Of a stretch of 64,000 nucleotides of DNA, positions 9,665-27,149 are shown in pieces. The stretch is from an uncultured Acidobacteriota bacterium (GTDB taxonomy: Bacteria > Acidobacteriota > Thermoanaerobaculia > Multivoradales > JAHEKO01): assembly GCA_963713825.1 (NCBI GenBank), contig CAVQNG010000025.1:1-64000 (forward strand). The letters run 5' to 3'. Made by a program: the position numbers and the translations under genes. How positions within the stretch are numbered: the first letter of the stretch is position 1; each line of letters starts with the position of its first letter. Below the pieces are notes generated by a model. It saw only the letters and a program-made list of their open reading frames with translations. It searched no databases and was not told the origin of the DNA.

Positions 9665-9753
9665 AATCCCACCCGTGCGGGTGGTGTAGGGAGCTCGCCG
9701 AGTCGAGTAGGCTGGGTGCTCGAAAGAGTCGAACCGCACGGCGAGGAGGAACC

Positions 9754-11743: not shown

Positions 11744-11751
11744 GAGTGAAG

Positions 11752-11781
11752 ATCTTATGCAACCTATTGGTTGCATGTCAA
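11752..11781 (-). promoter_or_regulatory. Sigma70-type promoter (TTGACA-18-TAAGAT) with embedded palindromic operator ATGCAACC-N4-GGTTGCAT
   Basis: Perfect 8-bp inverted repeat at 11757-11776 between the -35 and -10 boxes, immediately upstream of the arsR ATG (11743). Confidence 0.75.
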
Positions 11782-11835
11782 GTCAACCGATTGAGACGTC
11801 GTCGCCGATCGAGGATTGCAGCGCGGCGCGGTAGG

Positions 11836-12663
11836 ATGCGCACGATGATCGACTGGCTGGAAGCCCTCCTTCTGGGCATTGTGCAGGGTGCGACAGAGTA
11901 CCTTCCCGTCAGCTCTTCAGGTCACCTGGTGATCGCTCAGCACCTTTTCGGTTTGGAAGAACCGGCACTTTTCTTCGACATCGTGCTGCACCTCGGCACC
12001 CTGGTCGCGGTCGTCTGGTACTACCGAAGGGACCTCGTGGAGCTGGTCTTGGAGACCTTCGCGGCACTTCGCAATCTCGCATCGGGACACTCATGGAAGG
12101 AGACGCTGAAGTCGTACCCTGGCTTCCGCTTCGCACTCTTGATCGTCGTCGGCACGATCCCGACAGCGGTGATTGGACTCGCCTTCGAGGACACTTTCGA
12201 GCGACTCTTCGTCTCCGTGCGTCTCGTCGGGCTCATGCTGATCCTGACCGGAACCGTACTGTTGCTGACGCGGCTGGCTCGCAATGGAGGGCGTGATGCA
12301 GCCGGGATGACTTGGATCGACGCTCTCCTCATCGGTGTCGTGCAAGGAGTTGCCATCACGCCGGGTATCAGTCGATCCGGAATCACGATCGCTACAGCCC
12401 TCTTGCTTGGAATCGAACGAGAGACGGCGGCGCGCTTCTCGTTCTTGCTCTCCATTCCCTCGATCCTGGGTGCTCTCATGCTTCGCTTCGGGGAGGCGAA
12501 CGACGGCGTTGGCACGACAGCTCTGGTTGTCGGATTCAGTGCCGCGGCCCTGACCGGCTACTTCTGCCTCGCGCTCCTGGTCCGCCTGGTCAAAAGAGGT
12601 CGGCTGTCGTGGTTCGCCCCGTACTGCTTCGCTTTGGGCCTGCTCGTCTTGATCTTCGGCTAG
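11836..12663 (+). CDS. uppP: Undecaprenyl-diphosphate phosphatase
   Basis: 'QGATEYLPVSSSGHL', 'PGISRSG', 'ARFSFLLSIP'. Confidence 0.95.
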   Translation: MRTMIDWLEALLLGIVQGATEYLPVSSSGHLVIAQHLFGLEEPALFFDIVLHLGTLVAVVWYYRRDLVELVLETFAALRNLASGHSWKETLKSYPGFRFALLIVVGTIPTAVIGLAFEDTFERLFVSVRLVGLMLILTGTVLLLTRLARNGGRDAAGMTWIDALLIGVVQGVAITPGISRSGITIATALLLGIERETAARFSFLLSIPSILGALMLRFGEANDGVGTTALVVGFSAAALTGYFCLALLVRLVKRGRLSWFAPYCFALGLLVLIFG

Positions 12664-12738
12664 AGCCAGACCATCCGCTTTGGAGACGGAAGTTTCGGGT
12701 TGCTCCAAAAGGACGGCATCGGGATATCCTTCCTTGTC

Positions 12739-13797
12739 ATGCGAAGCAGAACGAGATCTCTTGTCAGGGTTGGATTTGCGGTGATCTGGATCGTGCTCGG
12801 CGGTCTCGGAAGCTCATTGAATGCTCAGGGCTCTGTCAACGAGGATCTGAGCCGACAGTGGGTTCACGTTCGCCCGGATCCGAAAGGCACGCCGACCCGA
12901 GTGGAGATGGGTGTCTACTTCCTCGACGTGATGGTCATCGACGACGCCACGCAGACCTTCCAGGTTGATCTGATCTTGTCCGCCCGTTGGAGGGACCCAC
13001 GGCTCGCCTTCTCGGTGGAGGAGACTGGTTTGGACGAGCTGGTGTTGCCATTGAAAGACGTTTGGTATGCGGGGCTTTCGGCACTGAACCGGCGCGAAAC
13101 AGAGATCTTCCTGCCTGACTTGGTGCAAGTCGATCCGGACGGCCAGGTCACCTATGCGCAGAGAGTCCAAGGTACCTTGGCATCACGGCTGGAGCTACGG
13201 GAGTTTCCGTTTGATTCCCAACTCCTGCCGCTTCATCTGGTGGCCTACCAGTACGGACCGGAAGAGATCGAGTTCGTGCTCACCGACAGACTGACCGGCA
13301 GCCGGGGTGACTTCTCGGTGACCGGGTGGGTGATCGAAGAAGGTGAGCGCAGGGTCGAGTCGGTACAGTTGCCCGGAGTGGAGGGTGAGTTTGCCGGTGC
13401 GAGCTTCTTTCTCCTGGCCAAGCGGCAGTCGTCGTACTTCAGCCTCACCATGATGGTGCCTCTGGTGCTCATCGTCCTTATGGCCTGGACCGTATTCTGG
13501 ATCGATCCCTCCGTTGTGCCACCCCAGGTCGGTATTGCGACGGCGGCCGTCTTTTCCCTCATCGCCTTTCGCTTCAGCTTGCGCAGTGCATTGCCTGCCG
13601 TGGCCTACATGACCCGAGCGGATCAGTTTCTCCTCGGCACGACCCTGTTGGTGTTCGCAGCTCTGGGCGAAGTCATAGTGACGGCTCGACTCGCCAAGCA
13701 GGGCAACGAGGAGCTGGCAGGTCGGATTGATCGCTGGGGCCGTTGGGTCTATCTCGTCGCATTCATCCTCCTGACAGCGTACTCGCGCTGGAACTGA
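12739..13797 (+). CDS. Prokaryotic pentameric ligand-gated ion channel (Pro-loop, GLIC/ELIC-like)
   Basis: Signal peptide, 'W.DPRL', 'DG.V.Y.QR', Pro-loop 'LREFPFDSQ', pre-M1 R, four TM helices with 'LP...YMT..D'. Confidence 0.88.
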   Translation: MRSRTRSLVRVGFAVIWIVLGGLGSSLNAQGSVNEDLSRQWVHVRPDPKGTPTRVEMGVYFLDVMVIDDATQTFQVDLILSARWRDPRLAFSVEETGLDELVLPLKDVWYAGLSALNRRETEIFLPDLVQVDPDGQVTYAQRVQGTLASRLELREFPFDSQLLPLHLVAYQYGPEEIEFVLTDRLTGSRGDFSVTGWVIEEGERRVESVQLPGVEGEFAGASFFLLAKRQSSYFSLTMMVPLVLIVLMAWTVFWIDPSVVPPQVGIATAAVFSLIAFRFSLRSALPAVAYMTRADQFLLGTTLLVFAALGEVIVTARLAKQGNEELAGRIDRWGRWVYLVAFILLTAYSRWN

Positions 13798-14013: not shown

Positions 14014-14904
14014 ATGGACTTCAAGATGCAATATTGGCTGCAGCGCATCGTTCCACTGGTCGCCCTGGCACTGGTGGTTGCCTGCGCTAGTAGTCAGACG
14101 CCGCCACCTCCAGCTGCTCCCCCCGAGCCGGAGAGCACGACCTCCTCCGCTCCAGAGGACAAGACGAAGGGTGAAAGCGGGGCGGAAGCTGGTCAAGAGG
14201 GTGGCGGAGACGGTACTGCCGGCTCTGAAGGCGGCGGACAATCGGGCAGTCAGGCCGGCCAGGGACAGTCCTCTGGAGAGGACGGATCAGGTGAGGAAGC
14301 GGGAGGGGAGGCCGCCAGTGGGCAGCCCGGCTCCCAGGGCGCAGAGGGAGGCGAGGACCAGTCGCAGGGAGGCGGAGCGAGCAGTGGCGCAGGTCAGCCT
14401 GCAGGGTCCATGGCGGGAAGCGAGCCAACCTCTGAGCTGGACCAGGAGTTGATCGCCTCGCTCGAGAAGTTCGACGGAATGCTGGCCAGTGAACAGCAGA
14501 CGGCCGCGCAAGCACGCGCCGAGGCAGAGGTCGCGGCTGAAACTGCCGCGGGATCGTCCGGCGGGAGCGGAGCTTTCGGAGATGAAGACTCCGATTTCGG
14601 AGACCCGGTCGGTGGTGGGCAGACGGGAGATGAGCAGACCGCGGGCTCGGCAGCGCAGTCAGCCTCCGGTGGAGGCACCAGCGAGGAAGAGTCGGGCGCA
14701 GAGAGCTCCGCGCCGGCGGGTTCGGCCGGCGGTGGCGGGGGTGGCGGCAGGGTGCCCGACGATGTCGGGGACGGCAGTGACGACGATATCGTGGCACGAC
14801 AACTCCGCGAGGCGGCGATGAACGAGAACGATCCAGAACTGCGTGAGAAGCTCTGGGACGAGTATCGCGAATACAAGGCAGCCGTGAAGAGGAAGAGTGG
14901 CTGA
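14014..14904 (+). CDS. Uncharacterised lipoprotein with long Gly/Ser/Glu-rich disordered linkers and a C-terminal helical motif
   Basis: Lipobox 'LVVAC'; low-complexity body; C-terminal 'DDDIVARQLREAA..E.DPELREKLW.EY..YK'. Confidence 0.75.
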   Translation: MDFKMQYWLQRIVPLVALALVVACASSQTPPPPAAPPEPESTTSSAPEDKTKGESGAEAGQEGGGDGTAGSEGGGQSGSQAGQGQSSGEDGSGEEAGGEAASGQPGSQGAEGGEDQSQGGGASSGAGQPAGSMAGSEPTSELDQELIASLEKFDGMLASEQQTAAQARAEAEVAAETAAGSSGGSGAFGDEDSDFGDPVGGGQTGDEQTAGSAAQSASGGGTSEEESGAESSAPAGSAGGGGGGGRVPDDVGDGSDDDIVARQLREAAMNENDPELREKLWDEYREYKAAVKRKSG

Positions 14905-14919
14905 CCAGGGTGGTCTGGT

Positions 14920-16161
14920 ATGAGATTGCAGAACGGAATTGCGTGTCTGGCCCTGGTGGCCTTGGGCCTTGTGGGATGTACTTCGACAGGTTCGCCCAGC
15001 TCTGGCAGTGCGGTGACCCTGATCCAAGCTGCAAGTGAGGTTCCAGAAGAGACGCTACTGGATGTGACGATCGAGGTCTTCGATCCGGGGTTGCTCGACC
15101 CGAGCGTACCTGTTGCCAAGGCCGAGAAAGAGGGGGTCTTCCCGGAGGTCCGAAAGGCCGAGGCGCGATTCATTCCCTATCAGCTCAAGCAGACTTTGCA
15201 GTCGACTGGCAATTGGGGAGCAGTCCGAGTGATGCCACAGGACACCTCCAGTGCAGAAGTGACTGTGACCGGCGAGATCATCAAGTCCACTGGCAAGGAT
15301 CTCGTGGTCGAGATCCAGGTGCAGGACTCGGCGGGTCAAACCTGGTTCGAGAAACGCTACAAGCAGGAGGCCGATGTCCTGGCGTACTCACCGGACCAGG
15401 TCAAGAAGAAGGATCCATTTCATGCCCTATACGGTGCTATCGCCAACGATTTGTTGGTTGAACGACAGAAGAGATCCCAAGCGGAGTTGATGAAGCTACG
15501 CCATATTGCGGACGTGCGGTTTGCGGCCGACCTGGCGCCGGTGGCGTTCGAGGACTATCTCAGCCTCGATCGCAAAGAGCGCTACAAGTTGGAGCATCTC
15601 CCCGCTGAGGATGACTCCATGATGGCTCGCATCGCCGAGATTCGAAAGCGCGATTACACCTTCATCGACACTCTCAACGAGTACTACGCCACTTTCACCA
15701 CCTCGATGGAAGAGCCTTATGACAACTGGCGGTCGTTCAGCTACGAGGAGCAACTGGCTCTGGAGAAGCTCCGTCGCCAGGCCAGGATGCAGAAGATCGT
15801 CGGTGCGCTGGCAATCTTCGGTGCTGTGGTTGCTCCGGGCGGCGGTAGCACCGCTGAGAGGGTGGCGCGCGATGTGGCCCTGATCGGCGGTATGGCGGCC
15901 ATTCAGAGCGGCATGGCCAAGTCACAGGAGGCCAAGATCCATGTCGAAGCCCTGCGTGAGCTGGGTGGCTCCCTGGATGTGGAAGTCACCCCGCTCGTTG
16001 TCGAGGTCGAAGGCGAGACACTGCGACTCAGCGGCACCATGGAAGGCCAATTTGCCGAATGGCGGGAGATGTTGCGGCAGATCTACGCCGAGGAGACCGG
16101 ACTGCCTGTGGACCCCAACGTCGAGGCAGGGCAGGCCGCCGGGACTTCGGTCGAGAACTGA
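14920..16161 (+). CDS. Uncharacterised lipoprotein
   Basis: Lipobox 'LVGC'; globular N-terminal part; glycine-zipper-like hydrophobic hairpin near the C-terminus; tight operon spacing. Confidence 0.75.
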   Translation: MRLQNGIACLALVALGLVGCTSTGSPSSGSAVTLIQAASEVPEETLLDVTIEVFDPGLLDPSVPVAKAEKEGVFPEVRKAEARFIPYQLKQTLQSTGNWGAVRVMPQDTSSAEVTVTGEIIKSTGKDLVVEIQVQDSAGQTWFEKRYKQEADVLAYSPDQVKKKDPFHALYGAIANDLLVERQKRSQAELMKLRHIADVRFAADLAPVAFEDYLSLDRKERYKLEHLPAEDDSMMARIAEIRKRDYTFIDTLNEYYATFTTSMEEPYDNWRSFSYEEQLALEKLRRQARMQKIVGALAIFGAVVAPGGGSTAERVARDVALIGGMAAIQSGMAKSQEAKIHVEALRELGGSLDVEVTPLVVEVEGETLRLSGTMEGQFAEWREMLRQIYAEETGLPVDPNVEAGQAAGTSVEN

Positions 16162-16181
16162 TTCCGGCGGTGCTTCGTCGT

Positions 16182-18167
16182 ATGTTCCCTCTCGAAAGCG
16201 GCCAGGTTCTCTGCTCCCGATTCACCTTGCTACGCCCCTTGGGTCGCGGGGGTATGGGCCAGGTCTGGCTGGCAAGCGATCGCCAGCTCGATGAAGAGGT
16301 GGTGACGAAGATCGTTCCGGCCGACGCCTCGGCGGTGACGATCGAGCTCTTGCGACACGAGTGTCGGAACACCCGCCGGTTGTCACACCCCAACATCGTC
16401 CGTGTCTTCGACTTCCATCAGTGTGACGGAGTGAGCTTCATCACGATGGAGCACATCACCGGAGAATCGATCGAGACCCTTCGCGGAGCTCCGATCGAGG
16501 ACATCGTCCAGACGCTCGCGTGGCTGGCAGGAGCTCTCGATCACGCCCACCAGGCAGGAGTGGTCCACCGAGACGTCAAGGCCGGCAACGTTCTTCTGGA
16601 TCGTACTGGTCAGCCGCGGTTGACGGACTTCGGAATCGCTGCGGTCCTAGACCCGGGTGACGGGGATCTACGCCTCGAAGGGGGTGGGTCGAGATACAGC
16701 ATGAGTCCACAGCAAGCGGCGGGAGATCCCCCACAGCCCTCCGACGACATCTACGGGCTGGGAACCCTGGCCTATCATCTGATTTCGGGACACCCTCCCT
16801 TTTGGTCCGAGGGCGACCTGGAGAGGATCCAGCGAGTCGCTCCGGAGCCCTTCGATCCCCAGAGAGGGGTGCCATCGACACTTCAGGCTCTGGTCGACCA
16901 GATGTTGGCCGAGTCGACAGCCGACCGTCCGGCACACATGGCCGAGGTGCGAAGGGCTCTGGAGGAAATCAACAGAGGATTGTCGGCGGCCGAGACCCAG
17001 GCACCGGAAGTTCGGCCCGCCGCGGTTCGACTCACTCCTCCTCCCAAGATCGAGTCTCGACGCCCTCTGGTCGGTCAAGACTCGGCCGTCAAGTCCGAGA
17101 GCAGGGCCCGGCTTTGGAGCACCGTGGCGGTCTTTTTGGTGCTCGGAGCGCTGGTCCTGGGCGTCTTTCTGCTGCTGCCGGGTTGGGTGCAGCGGCGCAG
17201 TGAGTCCGAAGAGGGTTGGGGGAGCTCGGAACATCAGGTTGCCGTGACTTCGGAGAGCAGAGAGGAGCAGTCGGCGTCGGTCAGCGAGCTGTCAGTCGAG
17301 CCCGAGATTGGCGAGCGTCGCGAGGCTCGACCGGAGACAGTAGTCGCCGAAACCACCGCTGAGCCGACCGAAGAGCCGACTCTTGATCCTGCTGCTGAAA
17401 GGGTGAAGCAGACGACCACCGGAGACTTCGGAATCGTAGTCCCTTCCCAGCAGGAAACGAGTTCGGACGCCGAGTTTCGCCGGGCCATGTCCGCAGGCCT
17501 GACAGCGCTGGAGGCGAGTGACTTTCCATCGGCCAAGCAGGCCTTCCAGCGAGCACGGGAGCTCTCACCAGGCTCTTCGGAGGTCGTGGATGGCCTGGGT
17601 CGAGCCGAAGAGGGTCTGCGGCTCGCCGCCATCGCGGCGCACCGCTCACGGGCTGAGGAATTCGAGCGCCAGGAAGATTGGAGTGCAGCTCTGCGAGAGT
17701 ACGATGCCGTATTTGGCCTCGACCCGACGATTCGCTTCGCGCGTGAGGGCAAGGCCCGAGCTGAAGTTCGATCCCAGCTCGCCGAGGGACTGGAGGATCA
17801 CATCGCTCATCCCGACCGATTGTCCAACGACGAAGTGTTGGAGAGTGCCGAGAGGCTCTTGAGCGATGCCAGGTCAGTGGAGCCGCCGGGTCCGGTGCTG
17901 CGCCGGCAGATCGACAGTATGACCAAGCTGTTGGCCGTCGCGACAACACCGATCCGAGTCGAGTTGGTCTCCGATAACCTCACGGAGGTGACGGTCTACC
18001 GAGTGGGTCGTTTGGGGAGATTCACCCAACAGGTCCTCGACCTACGCCCGGGCACCTATACGGTCGTCGGCAGCCGGGCGGGTTATCGGGATGTGCGTCA
18101 TCGGCTGACGGTCTCGCCGAGCCAGAGCTCGAAGCCCGTCGAAGTTCGGTGCTTGGAGGAGATTTGA
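16182..18167 (+). CDS. Membrane Hanks-type Ser/Thr protein kinase with periplasmic TPR-like and C-terminal PEGA-like regions
   Basis: 'LGRGGMGQVW', 'HPNIV', 'HRDVKAGN', 'DFG', 'SDDIYGLG'; one TM helix; helical repeats; 'LRPGTYTVVGSRAGY'. Confidence 0.88.
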   Translation: MFPLESGQVLCSRFTLLRPLGRGGMGQVWLASDRQLDEEVVTKIVPADASAVTIELLRHECRNTRRLSHPNIVRVFDFHQCDGVSFITMEHITGESIETLRGAPIEDIVQTLAWLAGALDHAHQAGVVHRDVKAGNVLLDRTGQPRLTDFGIAAVLDPGDGDLRLEGGGSRYSMSPQQAAGDPPQPSDDIYGLGTLAYHLISGHPPFWSEGDLERIQRVAPEPFDPQRGVPSTLQALVDQMLAESTADRPAHMAEVRRALEEINRGLSAAETQAPEVRPAAVRLTPPPKIESRRPLVGQDSAVKSESRARLWSTVAVFLVLGALVLGVFLLLPGWVQRRSESEEGWGSSEHQVAVTSESREEQSASVSELSVEPEIGERREARPETVVAETTAEPTEEPTLDPAAERVKQTTTGDFGIVVPSQQETSSDAEFRRAMSAGLTALEASDFPSAKQAFQRARELSPGSSEVVDGLGRAEEGLRLAAIAAHRSRAEEFERQEDWSAALREYDAVFGLDPTIRFAREGKARAEVRSQLAEGLEDHIAHPDRLSNDEVLESAERLLSDARSVEPPGPVLRRQIDSMTKLLAVATTPIRVELVSDNLTEVTVYRVGRLGRFTQQVLDLRPGTYTVVGSRAGYRDVRHRLTVSPSQSSKPVEVRCLEEI

Positions 18168-20602
18168 AGGTCACCCTCGAGCTGCAGACCGGTGAAGGTA
18201 CGCGGCGGTACCAGGAAAGCGACTTTCCCCTGACCGTTGGTGGCTCCAACGCCGAAATCGAGATCCCGAACCGGCCCGTTGGCAGTCCGATCGGGCATCT
18301 CGGAATCGCTGAGGGCGAGTTCTTTCTACAGCCGATTGCTGGCGGTGACGTAGTCGTCTGCAACGGTGGGACCGTGACCACCTCGCAGTGGTTGCGCGAT
18401 GGCGATCTCCTTCGTGTCGGTGATGCAGAGCTGAAGTTCTCCTCGGACGGGAGTGGAGCCGTTCTGCAGCTCACACACCGCGATTCCGATGAAGGCACCG
18501 ATCCCCCAGTCGTCCTCTTGGCTGCCCCTTCTGCACCAGCTCAGAGAGAAGGTGCGGGAAGGCAGGAGATCCGCCCCGTGGAATTCACGCCAGCCGATCT
18601 CGAAATGGGTCGCCGCAGGCGAAGGGCTCCGCGCCCGGCCGCCCTGGCTCTGTGGCTGGTCCTGGGCCTCCTGGCGATGACTGCATGGTACCTGTTCTCA
18701 GCCCGGCCAGTAGAGATTCGAGTCGAGCCAGAACCTGAGGATCTGCAGGTCGAGGGTGGCTGGTTACAGCTCGAGATCGGCGGCAGGGTTCTTCTCCGCC
18801 CTGGGGCCTATACGGTTGTCGCAGAGAAGGCCGGCTATCGACAGCTGGAAAGCCCCATCGAGGTGACGAAGGCCAGCTCCCAGGTCTTCGAGTTCCAGCT
18901 CGAGAGGTTGCCGGGTCTGTTGATCGTCGAGTTGGGTGTCGAGGCAGCGGCGACGCTCAGGGTCGATGGCGAGAAGGAGGATGCCTGGCCGCCCGGGTCT
19001 GTCGAGCTGGCATCGGGAGAGCATGATCTTCTGATCCAGGCGGAGGGCTACCGAGACTTCGTGACCGTGGTGGACATCGAGGGGGGCGGTGTGGAGCAGA
19101 CCCTCGAAGTGGAGCTGCAGCCCCTTTGGGCCACGGTCACCCTCGATAGCCAACCCTCTGATGCCGCTGTGACGATCGATGGCGAGCAGGTCGGTCGTAC
19201 GCCGCTGACCACCGAGATCCTCGAAGGCAATCGAGCGCTCGAGATCAACCTTGCAGGTTTCAAACCTCATCGCACCAGGATGCAAGTCAAGGCTGAGGAA
19301 ACGATCGAGTTGCCGACGGTACGACTGCTACCCAATGACGGCTCTGTTGCATTACGCAGCGAACCCCATGGAGCTACCGTCACCGTCGACGGCGAGTATC
19401 GTGGGCTGACGCCGCTCGAGCTCACCATGGCTCCGGGGCGGCAGTACGAGGTGAGCCTTTCGAAACTGGGTTACGAGTCCCACACCCTCGAACTGGCGGT
19501 CGCTACGGGGGAGATCCGGACGGAAGCTGTGAAGTTGGTCGAGAGGCTGGGAGAGGTCGAGATCGTCACTCGACCCGAGGGTGCAGAGCTCTTCGTCAAC
19601 GGACAATCCCTTGGCGCCGCGAATCAGATCCTCAGGCTGCAGGCGGTGCCGCAGAAAATCGAGATCAGGAAGCAGGGCTACGTGTCTCATAGCCAGACTG
19701 TGACCCCAAGGCCAGGAGTCTCGCAGGCCCTCGAGGTCACCCTTCTGACTGAGCGGGAAGCCAAGGCAGCCGCATCTCCGCCGGTCATCCAGGGACCGCA
19801 AGGCCAGGAGCTCAGGCTCATCGAGCCGGGTCGCTTTCGAGTCGGCGCACCGCGCCGCGAGCCAGGTCGGAGAGCCAACGAGACTCTGCGCGAGATCGAG
19901 CTCACCCGAGCCTTCTATATGGCGACCCGAGAGGTCTCGAACCGGGAGTTTCGCCAGTTCGAGGCGAAGCACCGTTCGGGCCGGGCAGGTCGAGCGAGTC
20001 TGGAGAACGATCACCACCCCGTGGTGAATGTCAGCTGGGAGCATGCGGCCCGCTACTGCAATTGGCTGAGCGAGAAAGCCTCGCTCGAGCCGGCGTATGC
20101 ATTCCGCAACGGTAAGCTGCAGGGAGTCGATCCACTGAGCAACGGGTATCGACTACCCACCGAGGCGGAATGGGCCTGGGCAGCTCGATTTGCCGGGGGT
20201 AGTGGCTTGAAGTATCCGTGGGGTGCCGCGTTGCCTGTCAGTCCGGGCTCCGGCAACTACGCTGACCTTTCAGCCGTAGGCAACCTGGAGGCGACTCTGT
20301 CCGACTATCAAGATGGTTTTCCGGCTACCGCTCCAATTGACAGCTTCGGCCCCAATGCAGTTGGCCTGCAGAACATGGGCGGCAATGTCGCCGAATGGAC
20401 TCACGACTACTACGCTATTGCCCCGAGCAACTCCGGACCGCCGATCCGCGACCCCCTTGGTCCGGAGAGTGGCGACTATCATGTGATCCGAGGTTCCAGT
20501 TGGATGCACTCCACGGTGACGGAGTTGCGGCTCAGCTTTCGCGACTACGGCAACAAGCCGCGTCCAGACGTGGGCTTCAGAATCGCCCGCTATGCCGAAT
20601 GA
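18164..20602 (+). CDS. FHA-like + TM + multiple PEGA + FGE-sulfatase (SUMF1/GldK-like) domain protein
   Basis: N-terminal 'CNG...LRDGDLLRVG'; PEGA repeats 'S.P.GA.V.VDG...G.TP'; 'PVVNVSW..A..YCNWL', 'RLPTEAEW', 'MGGNVAEW', 'GFRIAR'; TTG start overlaps the kinase stop, RBS GGAGGAG. Confidence 0.88.
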   Translation: MKVTLELQTGEGTRRYQESDFPLTVGGSNAEIEIPNRPVGSPIGHLGIAEGEFFLQPIAGGDVVVCNGGTVTTSQWLRDGDLLRVGDAELKFSSDGSGAVLQLTHRDSDEGTDPPVVLLAAPSAPAQREGAGRQEIRPVEFTPADLEMGRRRRRAPRPAALALWLVLGLLAMTAWYLFSARPVEIRVEPEPEDLQVEGGWLQLEIGGRVLLRPGAYTVVAEKAGYRQLESPIEVTKASSQVFEFQLERLPGLLIVELGVEAAATLRVDGEKEDAWPPGSVELASGEHDLLIQAEGYRDFVTVVDIEGGGVEQTLEVELQPLWATVTLDSQPSDAAVTIDGEQVGRTPLTTEILEGNRALEINLAGFKPHRTRMQVKAEETIELPTVRLLPNDGSVALRSEPHGATVTVDGEYRGLTPLELTMAPGRQYEVSLSKLGYESHTLELAVATGEIRTEAVKLVERLGEVEIVTRPEGAELFVNGQSLGAANQILRLQAVPQKIEIRKQGYVSHSQTVTPRPGVSQALEVTLLTEREAKAAASPPVIQGPQGQELRLIEPGRFRVGAPRREPGRRANETLREIELTRAFYMATREVSNREFRQFEAKHRSGRAGRASLENDHHPVVNVSWEHAARYCNWLSEKASLEPAYAFRNGKLQGVDPLSNGYRLPTEAEWAWAARFAGGSGLKYPWGAALPVSPGSGNYADLSAVGNLEATLSDYQDGFPATAPIDSFGPNAVGLQNMGGNVAEWTHDYYAIAPSNSGPPIRDPLGPESGDYHVIRGSSWMHSTVTELRLSFRDYGNKPRPDVGFRIARYAE

Positions 20603-20629
20603 CGGGCCGAACTGTCGAGGGAGATTGTC

Positions 20630-20866
20630 ATGAGGTTGATTCGATTCTCGATTCTTGTGCTGTTGTTGGTGGCCGGAGCCCTGATCGCGTTCGGGTCGCC
20701 AGGCTCGGCTGAAAAGGAGCAGACTGCCGCGGCGGCTGGGTCGGCGACGGAAGAGAGCCCACAGGCGGAGGAATCAGGGGAGAGTGAGGAGCGACCCCTG
20801 GAGACTTTCGTACCCACAGAGCGGCTGCCGGCCGACAGCGCCATTTCCTTTCCCGTCGACATTTGA
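20630..20866 (+). CDS. Small secreted protein ending in FVPTERLPADSAISFPVDI
   Basis: Signal peptide, acidic linker, RBS GAGGGAG; fills the gap in the operon. Confidence 0.75.
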   Translation: MRLIRFSILVLLLVAGALIAFGSPGSAEKEQTAAAAGSATEESPQAEESGESEERPLETFVPTERLPADSAISFPVDI

Positions 20867-20880
20867 GGGCTCAAGCTGCC

Positions 20881-21702
20881 ATGAAGAAAGACTATCCAGT
20901 CGAGTTCGTCTACCAGGCACTTTCCCTGATCGTGGCGGTGATCGTTGTGCACGCCTTCTACGTGGCGGTGGTTCGGCCCAGGGCGGACACCATCCTGGCC
21001 GAGCAGACAGCACAGATGCAGGCCGACCCGGACTACGTGCAAGAGCGGTCCATCTGGGTGATCATCCGGGACTTCGAACAGGAGGCCTGCTTCGTGCTGG
21101 CGCTCTGGGCGCTCGCCATCATGGCTCTGAAAGGGGCTCAGGCCGCCAAGGAGCGCAAGCTGCTGCAGGAAGACCTGGTGCCGGTGTCGGAGGGTACGAA
21201 GATCCTGCCGGAGGACGCGCGCGAGTATGCGCGTCAGATCCAGGCGCTGCCGGATGCCGATCAACGGGCGCTCTTACCCAGGGCGCTGCTGGCAGCTCTC
21301 GATCGATTCAGCGCCACCCGCAACATCCAGAATGCCTCGACTACGTCGCACGCCGTTTGCGAGGCGGAGTCCGACAGGCTCGAGTCCGAGCTCTCCATGG
21401 TGAGGTACATCGCCTGGGCGATTCCCTCCATCGGTTTTCTTGGCACCGTGAGGGGCATCGGTGAGGCCCTAGGACAGGCCCACAAGGCAGTGGAAGGCGA
21501 CATCGCAGGCGTCACACAGAGCCTGGGAGTGGCCTTCAACTCCACCTTCATCGCGCTGCTGATCAGCATCGTGCTCATGTTCCTGTTGCACCAGCTGCAG
21601 CTGCACCAGGAAAGGTTGGTCCTCGACACTGAGACCTATCTGGATCGGCACCTGATCCGACATTTGCAGGTCCAGACAACGCCGTCGACCCTCCCCGGAT
21701 GA
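20881..21702 (+). CDS. MotA/TolQ/ExbB proton channel family protein
   Basis: 'AIPSIGFLGTVRGI' and 'SLGVAFNSTFIAL' signature TM helices. Confidence 0.92.
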   Translation: MKKDYPVEFVYQALSLIVAVIVVHAFYVAVVRPRADTILAEQTAQMQADPDYVQERSIWVIIRDFEQEACFVLALWALAIMALKGAQAAKERKLLQEDLVPVSEGTKILPEDAREYARQIQALPDADQRALLPRALLAALDRFSATRNIQNASTTSHAVCEAESDRLESELSMVRYIAWAIPSIGFLGTVRGIGEALGQAHKAVEGDIAGVTQSLGVAFNSTFIALLISIVLMFLLHQLQLHQERLVLDTETYLDRHLIRHLQVQTTPSTLPG

Positions 21703-23120
21703 GCCAGACGACCACGGTTGCCGTCGAGTTGAACGATGTTGGGGTCGTCGCGGCCGGTCCCGGCCTGCAATCGATGGACCGAAGTCCGGGTTACGCGTTA
21801 CTCGATGACGATCGAGTCCTGGTCGGTAGGGAAGCCGTCGACCGAGCTCGCCTGAAGCCGAGATGGGTCGTGAATCGATTCTGGGACCGGCTCGATGCCG
21901 AGCCATTGGGCCGTCCCTTCCCCCACAATCTGCGCAACGCGGATCTCGTTCATGCCCATCTCACCGAGGTGTGGAGGAGCGTCCAAAGTGCCATGGACCC
22001 CCGATCGGGGACGGGTATCGAGGCAGTTGTGCTCGCGGTCCCTGGTTTCTATTCGAGTCAGCAGCTCGGGTTGCTCCTGGGTATTGGTCGAAGCAGCGGA
22101 GTGCCGATCGCTGGGGTGGTGGATTCGGCCCTCGTCAGCAGTGTCCGTTTGACAGAGGTCGAGCGCTCTCTCCATCTCGACATCTTGCTGCAGCGCGTGG
22201 TGCTCACGGAGTTGGCGCACTCCAGGAGTCTGGCGAGGCAACGAGTCGAAAGTGAAGCGACAGCAGGATTGTCCAGGGTGATGGACCTCTGGGCCAAGCT
22301 GATCGCCAGTCGTTTCGTGCAACAGACCCGGTTCGATCCGTTCCATCACGGGGAAAGCGAGCAGGATCTCTACGACCAGCTGCCGGGTTGGATCGCGGAA
22401 ATCGCTCGCAACGAGGGTGCTCTCTTGACGCTGGAGTATCGAGGCAAGAACCACAGCATCGAAATCTCCGCCGCTGAGATGCAAAGTGCCGTTCGAGTTG
22501 TCTATCAGGGGATCTCGAATCTGGTTCGGGCGGTGGCCTCTACTGGCAGTCGGCCGGCCCTGATCCTCTCCCAAGATCTTTCGAAGCTGCCGGGACTCCA
22601 AGTAGAGCTCGAAGAGGCAGTTGGCTCGGAGGCCGTGATCCTCGAGTCAGGCGCCGCTGCGACCGGTGCCCTCGAGCAGCAGCACCTTCTGGTGCGAGAA
22701 GGGGAACCTGAAGTCGAGTTCGTGACCGAGCTCCCGCTCGAGCCGCCCACCGGCAGCCCCGTCTCTGCTTCACTTGCGACTTCGAGATTACCGAGGGATG
22801 CTTCGGAGGCGATCGTCAAGCCACCGACCCATCTTCTCTACGAAGGCGTAGCCCATCCAATCGACAAAGACCCCCTGGTTCTCGGCCTGGCTACTCCGGC
22901 AGAGACAAGAGGAGTCAATCTGACGGGGTCCACGGCCGGAGTCTCGCGCCGCCACTGCTCGCTCTGGCGGCAGGGCGATGAGGTCATCGTCGAGGACCAC
23001 AGCACCTATGGGAGCTTCCTCAATGGCGGCCGCATCGAAGGGCGGGCGTTGCTGGCCGCGGGTGACCGGCTACGGTTGGGCACTCCCGGGATCGAGCTGC
23101 ACCTGATTGCCGTGGAGTAG
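21699..23120 (+). CDS. Degenerate Hsp70/actin-like ATPase-fold protein with C-terminal FHA domain
   Basis: 'AVVLAVPGFY...G...G.PIAGVVDSALVS' resembles DnaK 'AVITVPAYF..AG.....IINEPTAAA'; FHA 'GVSRRHC...DHSTYGSFLNG...L..GDRLRLG'. Confidence 0.7.
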   Translation: MSQTTTVAVELNDVGVVAAGPGLQSMDRSPGYALLDDDRVLVGREAVDRARLKPRWVVNRFWDRLDAEPLGRPFPHNLRNADLVHAHLTEVWRSVQSAMDPRSGTGIEAVVLAVPGFYSSQQLGLLLGIGRSSGVPIAGVVDSALVSSVRLTEVERSLHLDILLQRVVLTELAHSRSLARQRVESEATAGLSRVMDLWAKLIASRFVQQTRFDPFHHGESEQDLYDQLPGWIAEIARNEGALLTLEYRGKNHSIEISAAEMQSAVRVVYQGISNLVRAVASTGSRPALILSQDLSKLPGLQVELEEAVGSEAVILESGAAATGALEQQHLLVREGEPEVEFVTELPLEPPTGSPVSASLATSRLPRDASEAIVKPPTHLLYEGVAHPIDKDPLVLGLATPAETRGVNLTGSTAGVSRRHCSLWRQGDEVIVEDHSTYGSFLNGGRIEGRALLAAGDRLRLGTPGIELHLIAVE

Positions 23121-23124
23121 ACCG

Positions 23125-24219
23125 ATGCCGCGGCGCACCACGAACGTCTTCAGTCTCTCCTTCCTGGATGCCATGACCTGTGGCTTCGGGGCCGTGGTTC
23201 TGTTCTTCATGGTCATCAACGCGGCCGTTGGCACCCGGTCGGAGCGCGTGACCGGAGATCTGAAGGCCGAGGTGGACCGCCTCGAACAGGAGGTCCTCGA
23301 GGGGCACCAGGACCTCGTGGAGCTCCGCAACTCGCTGCGGCTGGTCGATCAGCGAGAAGCCGAAGCACGCGGTCTGTCACGCCAGATCATCGAGAACATC
23401 GAGGATCTCCAAGTGGAGCTCTCGACCTACGAGAACACCACGTTGGCCCAAGAAGAGCACGTCAATCGGCTGATGGCGGACCTGAAGTCTCTAGAAGAGA
23501 GCAATAGGCGGCTGTCGGCCGCCGTGCCCGAAGAAGAGGAGCCGCCAGGAGATCGGTTGCGATCGTTCATTGGCGACGGCGACCGACAGTACCTCACGGG
23601 TCTCAAGGTCGGCGGTCAGAGGATCTTGATTCTGGTCGATGCCTCTGCCAGCATGTTGGACGAGACCATCGTCAACATCATCCGTCGGCGCAATCTACCT
23701 GCTGCTCGCAGGAAGCAGGCGGAGAAGTGGCGTCAAGCCGTAGCGACTGTCGACTGGGTCACGACCCAGATTCCTCGAAGCAGTCGCTTTCAGATCTATA
23801 CCTTCAACGAGGCAGCCGGGTCGGTGGTGCCTGAAAGCGATGGCCAATGGCTCGATGGCAGTGACAAGGATGTCCTCGACGATGCGGTAGAGCGGCTGTC
23901 CAGAGTGGCGCCCGAGAAGGGCACCAATCTCTACAATGCCTTCGTCGCGATCCGGGGCCTGCAACCGGCGCCCGACAATGTGATCCTGTTGGTCGATGGT
24001 CTCCCGACCCAGGGCAAGGCCAGTCCGCGTTCGTCGATGGTCTCGGCGCGCGAGCGGATGAAGCTCTACACCAAGGCGGTCGACCAGCTTCCTCGTGGCA
24101 TTCCGGTCAACGTAATCCTGTTTCCCATGGAGGGTGATCCGCGTGCTCCCAGTGCGTTCTGGCAGCTGGCCATGGCGACGCGAGGGTCGTTCTTGAGCCC
24201 CTCGAGGGACTGGCCATGA
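23125..24219 (+). CDS. Membrane-anchored vWA protein (ExbD/MotB-like TM Asp, coiled coil, vWA)
   Basis: 'FSLSFLDAMTCGFGAVVLFFMVI'; heptad coiled coil; MIDAS 'DASAS', 'GTN', 'LVDG'. Confidence 0.85.
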   Translation: MPRRTTNVFSLSFLDAMTCGFGAVVLFFMVINAAVGTRSERVTGDLKAEVDRLEQEVLEGHQDLVELRNSLRLVDQREAEARGLSRQIIENIEDLQVELSTYENTTLAQEEHVNRLMADLKSLEESNRRLSAAVPEEEEPPGDRLRSFIGDGDRQYLTGLKVGGQRILILVDASASMLDETIVNIIRRRNLPAARRKQAEKWRQAVATVDWVTTQIPRSSRFQIYTFNEAAGSVVPESDGQWLDGSDKDVLDDAVERLSRVAPEKGTNLYNAFVAIRGLQPAPDNVILLVDGLPTQGKASPRSSMVSARERMKLYTKAVDQLPRGIPVNVILFPMEGDPRAPSAFWQLAMATRGSFLSPSRDWP

Positions 24220-25235
24220 GGAGGGGGCGTCGGCGAGGTGCTCCCGAGGGCTTCAGCCTGTCGTTTCTCGACGCGATCTGCTGTGGTTTCGGAGCGATCG
24301 TGCTGCTGCTCGTGCTGACCAAGATCGGCGAACCACGGGCCCTGGAGCAAGCGCGAATCAATCTGGATGGGCTGGTCGAGAAGCTCGAGCAGGAGCTGTT
24401 CGAGATCCGAGGAGAGACCGAGGTCCTCAATCGCAGCCTCACCAGTCGGCAACAGCAGCTCTCGACGGAGCGCGAGCTCATCGCACGCCTGAAAGGAGAC
24501 CTGTCGAGCATCCAGGGCGAGTTCGCGGCCTCGAAGCAGGAGTCGGAAGTCCAGGACATCATCGAAGGCCGCTTGTTGTCGGCGCAGCAGAAGCTGACGG
24601 TGGAGATGCAGCGATTGCGGCAGCAAAGCCAGGAACAACCTCGACAGGTCGAGCAGCAGCTGGTGGGGGGAATTCCCGTAGATAGCGAGTACATCATCTT
24701 CGTGATCGACACCTCGGGAAGCATGTTCACCTATGCCTGGCCGGCTGTGATGCGAAAGATGACCCAGGTTCTGGACGCCCACCCAAAAGTCAAAGGCATC
24801 CAGATCATGAACGACATGGGGCAGTACATGTTCTCCAGCTATGCCGGCAAGTGGATCCCCGATACTCCAGGTAGGCGAAAGGCCATTCTGGACCGACTGC
24901 GAACTTGGAGTGTGTTCAGCAACAGCAGTCCTGTCGAGGGGATCACCAGGGCAATACGCACCTTCGTGGCGCCGGACAAGAAGATCAGCATCTACGTCTT
25001 TGGAGACGAGTTCACCGGTCGCTCCATCGACGACGTCGTTGAGTCCGTGGCCCGAATCAATCGACGCGACTCCAGAGGCAACCGCCTGGTCCGGATCCAC
25101 GCCGTCGGCTTTCCGGTCATGTTTGCCGTGTCCGGTGTTTCGAACTCGACGGGTGTGCGCTTCGCCACGCTGATGCGGATCCTCTGCCACCGCAACGGCG
25201 GCACCTTCGTAGGCCTGAACAGCACGAAGCCATAA
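24216..25235 (+). CDS. Second membrane-anchored vWA protein (paralogous architecture)
   Basis: 'FSLSFLDAICCGFGAIVLLLVL'; coiled coil; MIDAS 'DTSGS', 'FGDE'; ATGA overlap. Confidence 0.85.
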   Translation: MRRGRRRGAPEGFSLSFLDAICCGFGAIVLLLVLTKIGEPRALEQARINLDGLVEKLEQELFEIRGETEVLNRSLTSRQQQLSTERELIARLKGDLSSIQGEFAASKQESEVQDIIEGRLLSAQQKLTVEMQRLRQQSQEQPRQVEQQLVGGIPVDSEYIIFVIDTSGSMFTYAWPAVMRKMTQVLDAHPKVKGIQIMNDMGQYMFSSYAGKWIPDTPGRRKAILDRLRTWSVFSNSSPVEGITRAIRTFVAPDKKISIYVFGDEFTGRSIDDVVESVARINRRDSRGNRLVRIHAVGFPVMFAVSGVSNSTGVRFATLMRILCHRNGGTFVGLNSTKP

Positions 25236-25346
25236 GGGGACTGGGGGTTGAGGCGGCCGGGCGTGCCTTCCGGCCGATCCTTGGGGCCTTGGGGGTTGAG
25301 GTGGCCGTTGTACCTCCGGCCTGTCTTCGAGGGCTTGGGGCTTGAG
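25236..25346 (+). repeat. ~47-bp tandem G-rich repeat with GGCCG hairpin (about 2.3 units)
   Basis: Units GGGnnTGGGGGTTGAGGyGGCCG..GTrCCTyCGGCC..TCyT; same unit at 27568-27668 (minus) and 37420-37488. Confidence 0.8.
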
Positions 25347-25448
25347 TCCTCAACATATGACCACAATCTGCGAGGGATCCTCGGAGCGCCGAATCGACAG
25401 GAAGGCATCTACCTTAGAATTGGCCGACGATGCATGGAGGCTGACTCG

Positions 25449-27149
25449 ATGCGACGCTTGACCTTGACTGTTCTTCTTGCCCTTGGAGCTGGGCTTCTAG
25501 ATCCAGCGATTGAAGGGGCCTCGTTCCCGGCGGTACGGGGTCATGGTGGTGCAGTGGCATCGGCGGAGCCGGCTTCGACCGAGGTCGGGCTCGAGATCCT
25601 GCGCGCCGGTGGCAATGCCGTCGACGCGGCCGTGGCGACTGCCCTCGCGCTGGCTGTTGTGCATCCGCAGGCTGGCAACCTGGGCGGCGGCGGATTCGCC
25701 GTCGTCCGGATGGAAGGCCAGCTGACGAGCCTGGACTTCCGGGAGGTAGCGCCCGCCGCAGCCACCCGGGAGATGTATTTGGATGCCGAAGGTCGGCCGG
25801 TGAAGGACGCCTCCATCTTCGGACCGCTGGCCGCGGGTGTGCCGGGATCACCGATTGGGCTATACGAGCTCCACCAACGCTACGGTGCTCTCCCATGGCC
25901 CCAGGTGGTCAGGCCAGCCCGGCTGCTGGCCTCCGACGGTTTCCAGGTCACGACTCGGCTTCGCGAGTCCCTGGCCGAGGAGCAGGAGACTCTCGAGCGC
26001 TTTCCCGAGACAGCGGCGGTGTGGCTGCCGGACGGTCGACCACCAGCTGTCGGCAGTCGAATGCGTCTGCCAGCCCTTGCGGCTGCGCTCGAAGCCTATG
26101 CCGAGCAGGGTCCACGGGCGCTGACCGAGGGACCGATCGCCGAGGCCATCGAAAGGGCTTCGAAGGCGCACGGTGGTCTTCTGCGGGTGTCCGATCTCCA
26201 GAGTTACATGGCGGTCTGGCGGCGACCGCTGGAATTCAGTGCGTTCGGGTGGAAGATGGCGGCGATGGACCTTCCCGCCTCCGGAGGGATCATCGTGGCG
26301 CAGACCCTGGACCTGCTGGAGAGTCTCGGCTGGAGCGAGTTGTCCCGCTTCGGTGCCGACCGGGCGCATCTGCTGGCCGAGGTGTGGCGCCGCTCCTATG
26401 CCGATCGATTCCTCATGGGGGATCCGAGGAGCTCCGAGGCCGACTCGCAAGGCCTGCTGGCCCCCGAGTGGCTCGCCTATCGGCGATCGACAATTCAGAT
26501 GGACAAGGCATCGCTGTCCGCCGACATCGCCCGCCTCCCCGCCTCCCCGCCTGCCGAGAGCCCGGACACCACCCACGTGGCGGTGGCCGATGCCGCCGGG
26601 AATCTGGTGACGCTGACCACGACCCTCAACGACACCTTCGGTTGCAGGCTTCTGGTTCCGGAGGCCGGCTTCCTGCTCAACAACGAGATGGACGACTTCG
26701 CCGCCGCGCCGGGCCGCCCGAACATGTTCGGGTTGGTCCAGGGCGAAGCGAATGCTGTGCGGCCTGGTCACCGGATGCTGTCCTCTATGACACCGACCCT
26801 CGCCTGGCGCGGGGAGGAGGCTGTCTCTTTGGGAGGTCGCGGAGGCTCTCGCATCCCCACGGCCGTAGCTCAAGTCCTGCTCCATCTATTGGTGGATGGC
26901 GACCCGCTGCAGACCGCCATCGATAGGCCGCGTCTGCACCACCAATGGCTTCCCAACGTGCTTCGGGCTGAAGCGGACGCCCTGAGCCCTGAGACCATAG
27001 AGGAGCTCTCGAGACGAGGGCACGAGGTCGATATCTGGACCAAGGACGCCAAGGTGAACGCCGTCCGAGCTCTCGAAGATGGCACCTTCGAGGCCGCCGC
27101 CGACCCCCGTGGCCCCGGCGCCGCCGGAGTTGTCAATTCGATTCACTGA
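25449..27149 (+). CDS. ggt: Gamma-glutamyltransferase
   Basis: 'GGNAVDAAVA', 'LGGGGF', 'DFRE.AP', catalytic 'TTH', 'LNNEMDDF', 'SSMTP'. Confidence 0.95.
   Translation: MRRLTLTVLLALGAGLLDPAIEGASFPAVRGHGGAVASAEPASTEVGLEILRAGGNAVDAAVATALALAVVHPQAGNLGGGGFAVVRMEGQLTSLDFREVAPAAATREMYLDAEGRPVKDASIFGPLAAGVPGSPIGLYELHQRYGALPWPQVVRPARLLASDGFQVTTRLRESLAEEQETLERFPETAAVWLPDGRPPAVGSRMRLPALAAALEAYAEQGPRALTEGPIAEAIERASKAHGGLLRVSDLQSYMAVWRRPLEFSAFGWKMAAMDLPASGGIIVAQTLDLLESLGWSELSRFGADRAHLLAEVWRRSYADRFLMGDPRSSEADSQGLLAPEWLAYRRSTIQMDKASLSADIARLPASPPAESPDTTHVAVADAAGNLVTLTTTLNDTFGCRLLVPEAGFLLNNEMDDFAAAPGRPNMFGLVQGEANAVRPGHRMLSSMTPTLAWRGEEAVSLGGRGGSRIPTAVAQVLLHLLVDGDPLQTAIDRPRLHHQWLPNVLRAEADALSPETIEELSRRGHEVDIWTKDAKVNAVRALEDGTFEAAADPRGPGAAGVVNSIH

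Follow-up and report, generated by a model that had tools for sequence, protein, structure and literature searches.

Introduction

Ion-driven 5:2 motors power flagella, nutrient import, outer-membrane (OM) maintenance, gliding, type IX secretion and phage defence, and each new load found for these motors has taught new biology. Here we describe a cassette of nine genes, g1 to g9 (Table 1), at positions 14014–25235 of a 64,000-nt stretch of contig DNA from an uncultured Acidobacteriota bacterium; this whole stretch is called the window below. The cassette encodes a channel subunit of the MotA/TolQ/ExbB family (g6) and two paralogs (g8 and g9) in which an aspartate-bearing transmembrane (TM) helix is followed by a coiled coil and a predicted von Willebrand factor A (vWA) head. 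We propose that the nine genes specify one envelope-spanning apparatus built around an ion-driven 5:2 motor, which would serve envelope coupling or surveillance in a Tol-Pal-like way, and give this proposal a probability of about 0.55.

In literature searches on the full cassette, a single paper was found to bear on it (PMC12204202; Mol Biol Evol 2025, msaf138, 'Origin and Evolution of Bacterial Periplasmic Force Transducers'). According to the accessible part of its text, that in silico study defines a second family of TM-tethered 'transpore-helix (TPH) vWA' proteins, the genes of which mostly form heterologous pairs that co-occur very tightly with tolQ homologues and come without tolR or exbD. 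A conserved Asp lies in the transpore helix, in AF3 models the two Asp residues come to lie within the ring of threonines that the pentamer forms, and the function of the TPH vWA motor is given as unknown (PMC12204202).

The features named in that text are all present here, namely the tethered vWA pair, the tight linkage to a tolQ-like gene, the lack of tolR and exbD, the helix Asp and the channel threonines, and so is the occurrence in Proteobacteria and Kiritimatiellae, the latter through one metagenome-assembled genome (MAG; L072). The same portion of the text on this family does not mention g1–g5, g7 or a kinase/FHA layer, nor does it name carriers in Acidobacteriota, Desulfobacterales and Myxococcales, unlike what is seen here. 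The cassette was assigned to the family by these described features and not by sequence comparison with the Idiomarina reference proteins, and no Idiomarina record is among the loci kept from our genome-collection scans. An earlier note on this DNA knew of no characterized system of such composition. With respect to experiments this stands, but the motor core had been published in 2025 as a computational prediction (PMC12204202, in the text cited above), so that a description of the core of the cassette already existed. Within the predicted motor class, the locus counts as a new member that bears a kinase and is experimentally uncharacterized.

Several better-known machines resemble the cassette in part. 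The channel subunits of ExbB-ExbD-TonB and TolQ-TolR-TolA (with Pal and TolB) belong to the same Pfam family as g6 and carry the same threonines; their partner helix likewise enters N-in with an Asp near its cytoplasmic end, OM lipoproteins are encoded alongside, and the g2 N-domain resembles that of TolB. The cassette differs in lacking the ExbD/TolR periplasmic domain, detectable homology in the helix and a TonB/TolA-like third subunit, and its axle would be a heterodimer of paralogs that carries its own vWA binding head on a coiled coil. The type IX secretion system (T9SS) and the gliding apparatus (GldL/PorL-GldM/PorM with the PorK/GldK-PorN ring) likewise combine a 5:2-type motor with a non-enzymatic periplasmic protein of the formylglycine-generating enzyme (FGE) fold. 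In g4, however, that fold is held by an inner-membrane TM anchor and joined to PEGA repeats, and the protein is not a lipoprotein as PorK/GldK is; none of the cassette proteins matched the PorL/M/N or T9SS cargo families in Pfam or NCBIfam.

The periplasmic domain of the kinase PpkA is a vWA domain. In Pseudomonas aeruginosa the OM lipoprotein TagQ binds TagR, a member of the FGE-sulfatase superfamily, and the pair is modelled to dimerize PpkA, as stated in the accessible part of PMC13713981. The TagQ/TagR-PpkA-Fha1 set of the H1 type VI secretion system (H1-T6SS), so far as it is described there, has the same mix of OM lipoprotein, FGE-superfamily binder, membrane Hanks kinase and FHA readers. 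The cassette differs from it in that a TM protein includes the FGE domain as a fused part, the vWA domain sits on the motor axle instead of the kinase, T6SS genes are missing, and most of the family can do without the kinase. Zorya ZorA-ZorB is likewise a non-flagellar 5:2 complex of the MotAB type with an unusual appended structure and a patchy distribution. The cassette has neither a ZorB-type partner nor ZorC/D/E effectors, and its appended part would be periplasmic and located on the B-type subunit. PADLOC matched no system in the cassette; ZorA models matched g6 only, and faintly (E 9e-4, 16 bits, and 7e-3), some generic defence-kinase matches were seen besides, and seven of the nine proteins, g7, g8 and g9 among them, had no match.

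Results

A tight operon kept across phyla

Nine open reading frames (ORFs) fill the stretch, all in the same direction. The spacings from g1 to g9 are 15, 20, −19, 27, 14, −4, −14 and −4 nt, so that adjacent genes either overlap or are at most 27 nt apart. These values were computed with the starts that relatives support, which are M42 (16182) for g3, open from 16059, and M7 (an ATG at 20881) for g6, open from a TTG at 20863. The nine genes are a real, tight operon, as the earlier note had described it. Its list of genes and domains was found correct by Pfam, lipobox, fold and alignment evidence, with the FHA-like part of g4 kept as a lead only. Also confirmed was its statement on missing families, since no ExbD/TolR/MotB, TonB, Pal, TonB-dependent transporter, flagellar, T6SS or T9SS core family scored above cut-off in the nine proteins with Pfam or NCBIfam. 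A promoter and terminator scan of the stretch yielded no signal beyond shuffled expectation. No RNA run is among the public runs listed as containing the stretch. Sixteen public DNA runs from 11 studies, mostly labelled as sediment, marine-sediment or salt-marsh metagenomes, contain at least half of the sampled words of positions 15300–25235.

Related loci were chosen by likeness to g8/g9, which means that they sample the closer side of the family. At least 588 and at least 574 relatives came from two scans of species genomes, and two sets were drawn from them. The first comprises the 47 of the first 91 loci that have at least 9 kb upstream of g8. All 47 are colinear, and g6, g7, g8 and g9 are found in every one, g3 and g4 in 46 each (plus one inverted), g2 in 45 (plus one) and g1 in 41 (plus one). 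In the second, which consists of 52 gamma-centred loci with enough flank, g6, g7, g8 and g9 are found in 52 each, g2, g3 and g4 in 49 each, and g1 in 48. A distant subfamily with 30–45% identity, sampled in eight loci of Gammaproteobacteria, retains g2, g4, the MotA-like gene, g8 and g9 in 8/8, the C-terminal part of g3 in 7/8 (tblastn) and g1 in 6/8; g7 is matched in none of the eight, and the MotA-like gene abuts g8 in six. The genes for the two lipoproteins, the TPR and PEGA-FGE membrane proteins and the small peptide are thus as well kept as the motor core. Gene order is the same from Acidobacteriota to cultured marine Gammaproteobacteria. The grouping is far beyond chance because this order is kept in related loci across several phyla. 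The genes do belong together and recur elsewhere, as had been supposed, with the cassette colinear in the 47-locus set, its genes retained in nearly all of the 52 and its core present in the distant loci.

The carriers are Acidobacteriota, Gammaproteobacteria, Desulfobacterales, Desulfuromonadales, Myxococcales, Rhodospirillaceae and the single Kiritimatiellae MAG. Cultured ones include Halioglobus, Thalassomonas, Microbulbifer, Pseudomaricurvus, Marinibactrum, Seongchinamella and Bowmanella, and these marine, non-pathogenic carriers make the function of the cassette testable by ordinary genetics. The vWA pair was detected in 6 of 401 sampled Acidobacteriota genomes, this one included (5 of 227 genera), each time as two adjacent matches. 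Among 400 sampled Gammaproteobacteria genomes it was detected in 36 (about 9%, a tally that takes in one genome flagged as unpublished, G442), of which 34 gave two matches, one gave four and one gave one; in nearly all of the 36 the two genes are again neighbours. Out of 1.84 billion cluster representatives (50% identity), a g9 profile collected 473 at E ≤1e-30, and the yield rose to 1251 at 1e-10 and to 2699 at 1e-3. With 473 g9 clusters and about 9% of the sampled Gammaproteobacteria genomes, the cassette is not rare. In an unrooted g9 tree of 163 rows (FastTree), phylum labels need 7 changes where the minimum is 4 and the shuffled mean 33.6, which argues for little shuffling of the cassette between phyla in the sample.

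In one gammaproteobacterial genome (G594, contigs C1 and C2), the four matches make up two vWA pairs, of which one belongs to the closer and the other to the distant subfamily. As the latter lies within a full cassette (L180), two versions of the machine can coexist. The cassette is also carried by MAGs titled Klebsiella pneumoniae or Enterobacteriaceae (L058, L128, L134 and L135), with about 53–60% identity to Pseudomonadales-type copies. These titles look like mislabelled bins and not like true enterobacterial carriers.

The channel and its putative axle

The g6 protein matches PF01618 (MotA_ExbB) at 2e-14, with 53.8 bits against a cut-off of 22.9, and contains four hydrophobic segments. When 21 cassette homologues were aligned with the genome's own TolQ and ExbB, residues P182, G185, G188, T189, V190, G192, A218 and T222 were invariant. 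The PxxGxxGTVxG motif and the AxxxT threonine of g6 are common to TolQ and ExbB of this genome, and both channel threonines (T189 and T222) are kept; the accessible text of PMC12204202 states that the channel threonines are functional residues of ExbB/TolQ. Elsewhere in the genome are two canonical loci of the MotA/TolQ/ExbB family. One encodes TolQ-TolR and then a proline-rich TolA/TonB-like ORF (judged from translation), and the other encodes ExbB-ExbD-ExbD and then a TonB-like ORF. Each of the three ExbD/TolR genes adjoins its own ExbB/TolQ, while g6 is without such a neighbour. With these three ExbD/TolR proteins as tblastn queries, a match was obtained in 1 of 186 related loci, where it was located outside the cassette.

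The g8 and g9 proteins are paralogs (BLASTP 3e-16, 25% identity). Each begins with an Arg-rich N-tail followed by a helix that bears F-L-D...C-G and is the only hydrophobic segment of the protein (residues 19–37 in g8), and a coiled coil of about 100 residues lies between this helix and the vWA head. In a joint alignment of 16 rows, F19, L20, D21, C25, G26, G28, D178, S180, S182 and D297 (g8 numbering) are invariant. Similarly, the helix Asp (D21 in g8, D19 in g9) and DxSxS are invariant in alignments of 35 rows made for each paralog. The metal-ion-dependent adhesion site (MIDAS) of g8 is complete, with D178xS180xS182, G272-T273 and D297. The head of g9 is a divergent vWA with D165xS167xS169, S235/S237 and D264, and the Atlas clusters nearest to g9 are unnamed ones together with VWA_2 and VWA_3 clusters.

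An intramembrane Asp that is invariant in both paralogs across phyla appears to go beyond what an ordinary anchor helix would require. On the simplest reading, g8 and g9 would form the Asp-bearing dimer of a 5:2 motor and stand in for ExbD/TolR/MotB. The earlier note had taken the Asp-bearing partner to be missing and the vWA proteins to be driven by the motor. The former does not hold, since g8 and g9 carry the invariant FLD Asp. The latter holds in part: a motor with periplasmic vWA/MIDAS heads is still the best reading, and because the Asp sits in their own N-terminal helix, the vWA proteins would be the axle and not a separately driven load of another partner.

Lipoproteins, peptide and membrane scaffolds

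The g1 lipoprotein combines a long, acidic, low-complexity linker rich in Gly and Ser with a helical motif that is strongly conserved at the C-terminus, ...DDDIVARQLREAA...DPELRE.LWDEYR.Y, and has no Pfam or NCBIfam family. Its C-terminal hairpin motif was found in at least 69 of 97 upstream ORFs, most of the misses being due to crude frame choice. The plan of g1 parallels that of g5, with a lipid anchor followed by an acidic linker that is disordered and, at the C-terminus, by a hairpin of high conservation. The g5 peptide has a signal peptide, a variable acidic linker and the tail [FY]xP[ST]Ex[ILV]xxDxx[VI][SA]FPx[DN]I-COOH. A g5-type ORF lies between g4 and the MotA-like gene in all 133 loci for which the facing ends of these two genes were both located, and within its tail P(−4) and I(−1) are kept in all 133, D(−2) in 128, D(−10) in 126, F(−5) in 125 and E(−15) in 121. 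By tblastn alone, g5 was found in 21 of the 47 and 3 of the 52 loci. The conserved g5 tail and g1 hairpin provide concrete binding hypotheses for the vWA heads. A complex prediction with the g5 tail (residues 40–78), the FGE domain of g4 and two vWA heads gave a score not clear of the control in which the FGE domain was replaced, and has no bearing either way.

For g2, the model (predicted local distance difference test, pLDDT, 76) consists of an N-terminal alpha/beta domain of the TolB-N / PelC / FlgT / CsgG / DUF330 type, two very long helices and a small beta unit. VIA-align placed the N-domain at Z 9.2–10.7 with FlgT (8z5n), DUF330 (2iqi), PelC (5t10), the TolB N-domain (7mx5) and CsgG, which is moderately above the stated background of Z 7–8. 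The match to PelC 5t10 has a root mean square deviation of 2.4 over 108 and that to the TolB N-domain a Z of 9.7; Foldseek gave E 1e-4 to 1e-2 for the same fold group. The model thus suggests that the g2 N-domain has the fold of periplasm-facing, often ring-forming OM lipoproteins. Homologues of g2 number 377, and all 120 of those listed are unnamed or 'hypothetical' and without Pfam.

Two proteins of the cassette would act as scaffolds in the inner membrane. In g3 the kinase motifs are intact (VTK82, HRD170 and DFG190), a TM segment (355–373) follows the kinase domain, and the C-terminal 238 aa give TPR_14 and CarboxypepD_reg-like matches. Residues 465–702 are the only part of g3 conserved everywhere, and the gamma homologues are TPR-only. 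In g4, the TM segment lies at 165–183 without a lipobox and the PEGA match (2e-44) spans three stretches. The nearest named Atlas clusters of its N-terminal 150 aa are FHA at 0.92; Pfam finds FHA proper in none of five homologues and a weak YscD-type match in one of the five, and the FHA-like character of this N-terminus is a lead only.

A catalytic FGE needs a Cys pair near the C-terminus of the fold. The only Cys residues of g4 are at 71 and 637, and its alignments to human and bacterial FGEs stop at about residue 799. As this Cys pair is absent, the FGE domain of g4 is probably a binding module, and g4 was rejected as a catalytic formylglycine-generating enzyme. The solved structures nearest to the domain are PorK/GldK (2e-19), ahead of true FGEs. 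As a T9SS PorK/GldK, g4 was rejected as well, because TIGR03525 gave 116 bits against a cut-off of 350 and the protein has a TM segment and no lipobox.

The phosphorylation layer and g7

In the model of g7 (pLDDT 91), residues 1–345 adopt the fold of an Hsp70 nucleotide-binding domain (NBD), with Foldseek E ~1e-18 and TM-scores of 0.7–0.78 on NBD-only chains. The NBDs of DnaK, BiP and mortalin are matched at 12–14% identity. There is no Pfam Hsp70 (PF00012) match in g7, and the glycine-rich phosphate loops are not recognizable by eye, though the NBD fold matches. A disordered linker leads to a C-terminal FHA domain (7e-11), and the protein is without TM segments.

The earlier note had the machine gated by phosphorylation. 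As a general feature of the family this does not hold. Of 112 related loci, 27 have the kinase domain, 34 have the N-terminal module of g4, 77 have the g7 FHA, and 34 show none of the three modules; these tblastn counts were made with the proteins of the window as queries, which divergent domains may escape. The distant subfamily is also without g7. Both FHA-type modules are present in 25 of the 27 kinase loci, so that the layer is roughly nested. Supported branches contain only four independent pairs, not enough for a test of co-evolution between kinase and FHA modules. Both the kinase/FHA layer and g7 with its Hsp70 fold are accessory in the family.

Discussion

Proposed mechanism

From family membership and the conserved threonines, g6 is expected to form a TolQ-like pentameric channel. 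The g8/g9 heterodimer would insert its Asp-bearing N-terminal helices into the pore, where proton flow through the Asp/Thr site would turn or pull the axle. The coiled coils would then carry two metal-dependent vWA heads some 15 nm into the periplasm (about 100 residues × 0.15 nm), a step that agrees with the AF3-based prediction for such a gene trio in the accessible text of PMC12204202. In the periplasm the heads could act on partners encoded by the same operon and located there or at the outer membrane, the candidates being the g5 peptide tail and the g1 and g2 lipoproteins. Around them, g3 with its TPR and g4 with its PEGA repeats and PorK-like FGE domain would be periplasmic scaffolds anchored in the inner membrane, with g1 and g2 providing anchorage to the outer membrane. 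In this organism, cytoplasmic control may be exerted by the g3 kinase, the FHA-like N-terminus of g4 and the FHA domain of the Hsp70-fold g7. An axle that itself ends in integrin-like metal-dependent heads, and that travels with fixed envelope proteins of no known family, is what sets such a machine apart.

The weakest step of the proposal is our guess at its task: much like Tol-Pal, the machine would couple outer membrane and wall mechanically or keep them under surveillance. We do not favour motility, secretion or import. The guess is made because the cassette has no conserved companion gene for a barrel, cargo, adhesin or effector, because of the nature of the partners, and because envelope-biogenesis genes lie nearby, namely those for UppP and the ArnT-like glycosyltransferase here and, in gamma loci, those for two additional lipoproteins and an M48 peptidase lipoprotein.

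Several observations weigh against this reading of the cassette. The vWA call is weak by sequence: g8 matches VWA_2 at 2e-4, which is below the Pfam cut-off (5e-6 in a Pseudohongiella homologue), g9 has no Pfam match at all, and in a PDB profile search with g8/g9 the coiled-coil segment matched coiled coils only, the vWA matches having E values above 0.01. Comparison of the g8/g9 alignment with the three ExbD/TolR proteins of the genome by hhalign gave a probability of 0.2%, that is, no detectable homology, and Pfam ExbD or MotB matches are missing from both. The role of g8/g9 as motor partner therefore rests on their features and context; they would be ExbD-like in working, by inference, and are not ExbD family members by sequence. 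Judged by its patchy distribution, the cassette is more likely to have an accessory function than a Tol-like housekeeping one. Moreover, it has no conserved companion gene for an OM barrel, adhesin, substrate or effector that would point to a load or phenotype.

A bolder version of the proposal, which we hold only tentatively and think may well be wrong, is that of a machine with an eight-gene core and a task outside Tol, Ton, flagellar, gliding/T9SS and Zorya functions. Its MIDAS heads would grip the g5 tail and/or the g1 hairpin and so couple proton flow to a g2 ring inside a PEGA/FGE/TPR cage, and in some lineages, this one among them, Ser/Thr phosphorylation would switch the whole machine by way of FHA domains and a pseudo-ATPase of Hsp70 fold.

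Alternative explanations

The cassette could alternatively be an envelope-damage sensor and signalling module like TagQ/TagR-PpkA-Fha1, with which it has its domain vocabulary in common (OM lipoprotein, FGE-superfamily protein, membrane Hanks kinase and FHA). Lipoproteins and FGE domain would report a disturbed outer membrane, motor and vWA would be the mechanosensor, and the resulting phosphorylation would be read by FHA. The TagQ-TagR binding and the modelled PpkA dimerization (PMC13713981, in its accessible part) agree with this, as do the intact catalytic motifs of g3. It is nevertheless unlikely: the kinase domain was found in so few of the 112 loci, 34 of them show no phospho-module at all, the g3 of cultured Gammaproteobacteria carriers is TPR-only, the cassette has no conserved output gene such as one for a phosphatase or transcription factor, and T6SS models stay far under cut-off (TagH 21.6 bits vs 120). 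A machine for surface motility, adhesion or secretion, comparable to GldLM/PorLM-PorKN or to Agl-Glt with its vWA adhesin CglB, is quite improbable. The closeness of the g4 FGE domain to PorK/GldK (2e-19), with partial matches of GldK and GldJ models, would suit it, and in myxobacterial gliding vWA domains reportedly serve as adhesins. For its first vWA family, which comes with tolQR-like motor genes, the accessible text of PMC12204202 also floats a gliding role. Here, however, the vWA heads are tethered to the inner membrane and not exposed at the surface, the flanks of the cassette have no conserved gene for an OM barrel, a secretin, PorL/M/N, a cargo or an adhesin, the GldK model reaches 116 bits where 350 are needed, and g4 has a TM helix instead of a lipobox.

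Patchiness within phyla (6/401 and 36/400 genomes), the faint ZorA matches (E 9e-4, 16 bits) and the generic defence-kinase matches of PADLOC could also be explained by a Zorya-type anti-phage defence, in which a MotAB-like complex senses an attack on the envelope and triggers a response. We consider this very improbable, given that PADLOC recognized no system and left seven of the nine proteins without a match, that the cassette has no nuclease, NTPase or other effector domain, and that its flanks are envelope and housekeeping genes and not defence islands. The 7 label changes in the g9 tree, near the minimum of 4 and far from the shuffled mean of 33.6, argue in the same direction. Finally, g6 might work with an ExbD/TolR encoded elsewhere, g8 and g9 being BatA/BatB-like membrane vWA proteins that have no tie to it beyond the shared operon. 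The lack of ExbD/TolR likeness in g8/g9 by hhalign and the three ExbD/TolR genes elsewhere in the genome are what this arrangement would predict. Those three genes already adjoin an ExbB/TolQ each, g6, g8 and g9 stay together in 47/47, 52/52 and 8/8 distant loci, and both paralogs keep the intramembrane Asp without exception from phylum to phylum, so that this last explanation is hardly credible.

Gene inventory and genomic neighbourhood

Table 1. Genes of the cassette and neighbouring genes in the window
Gene or product	Position	Strand	Evidence
g1, lipoprotein, 296 aa	14014..14904	+	lipobox VVAC
g2, lipoprotein, 413 aa	14920..16161	+	lipobox LVGC
g3, Hanks-type Ser/Thr kinase, one TM, periplasmic TPR and PEGA-like end	16182..18167	+	Pkinase 1e-34
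g4, FHA-like N-terminus (lead only), one TM, PEGA repeats, FGE-sulfatase domain	18149..20602	+	PEGA 2e-44, FGE 2e-45
g5, small secreted peptide, 78 aa	20630..20866	+	signal-peptide-like N-terminus, conserved C-terminal tail
g6, MotA/TolQ/ExbB-family channel subunit	20881..21702	+	PF01618 above cut-off
g7, cytoplasmic Hsp70-NBD-fold domain and C-terminal FHA	21699..23120	+	model fold, FHA 7e-11
g8, TM helix with Asp, coiled coil, vWA head	23107..24219	+	alignments, weak VWA_2 match
g9, g8 paralog of the same plan	24216..25235	+	BLASTP 3e-16 to g8
ArnT/PMT_2-type glycosyltransferase and ferritin-like protein	8141..10230	+	2e-21 (glycosyltransferase), 7e-27 (ferritin-like)
Undecaprenyl-diphosphatase UppP/BacA	11746..12663	+	6e-81
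Prokaryotic pentameric ligand-gated ion channel	12700..13797	+	Neur_chan_LBD 6e-20, Neur_chan_memb 7e-11
Gamma-glutamyltransferase	25248..27149	+	4e-146

Only 12 nt separate g9 from the gamma-glutamyltransferase gene, which may be co-transcribed with the cassette in this lineage; outside the closest relatives it is absent from the flank of the cassette. The gene for the pentameric ligand-gated channel lies directly upstream of g1 and is likewise found beside the cassette only in the closest relatives (L001, L002 and L012). Neither the glycosyltransferase nor the ferritin-like protein is linked to the cassette in other loci.

In gamma loci, three further conserved genes lie on the same strand downstream of g9 (e.g., L059 4438–5313, L097 11362–12321 and L146 12024–13766). 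Two of them have no Pfam match and contain lipobox-like motifs (95 and 89 loci, tblastn), and the third encodes an M48 peptidase, likewise with a lipobox-like motif (81 loci). The three have no homologue within the window.

The gene for UppP/BacA is located 1.3 kb upstream of the cassette. In another Acidobacteriota locus (L005), a UppP homologue with 63% identity (12179–13006) lies immediately downstream of g9, which is a second, rearranged linkage of the cassette to this enzyme of the cell-wall lipid carrier.

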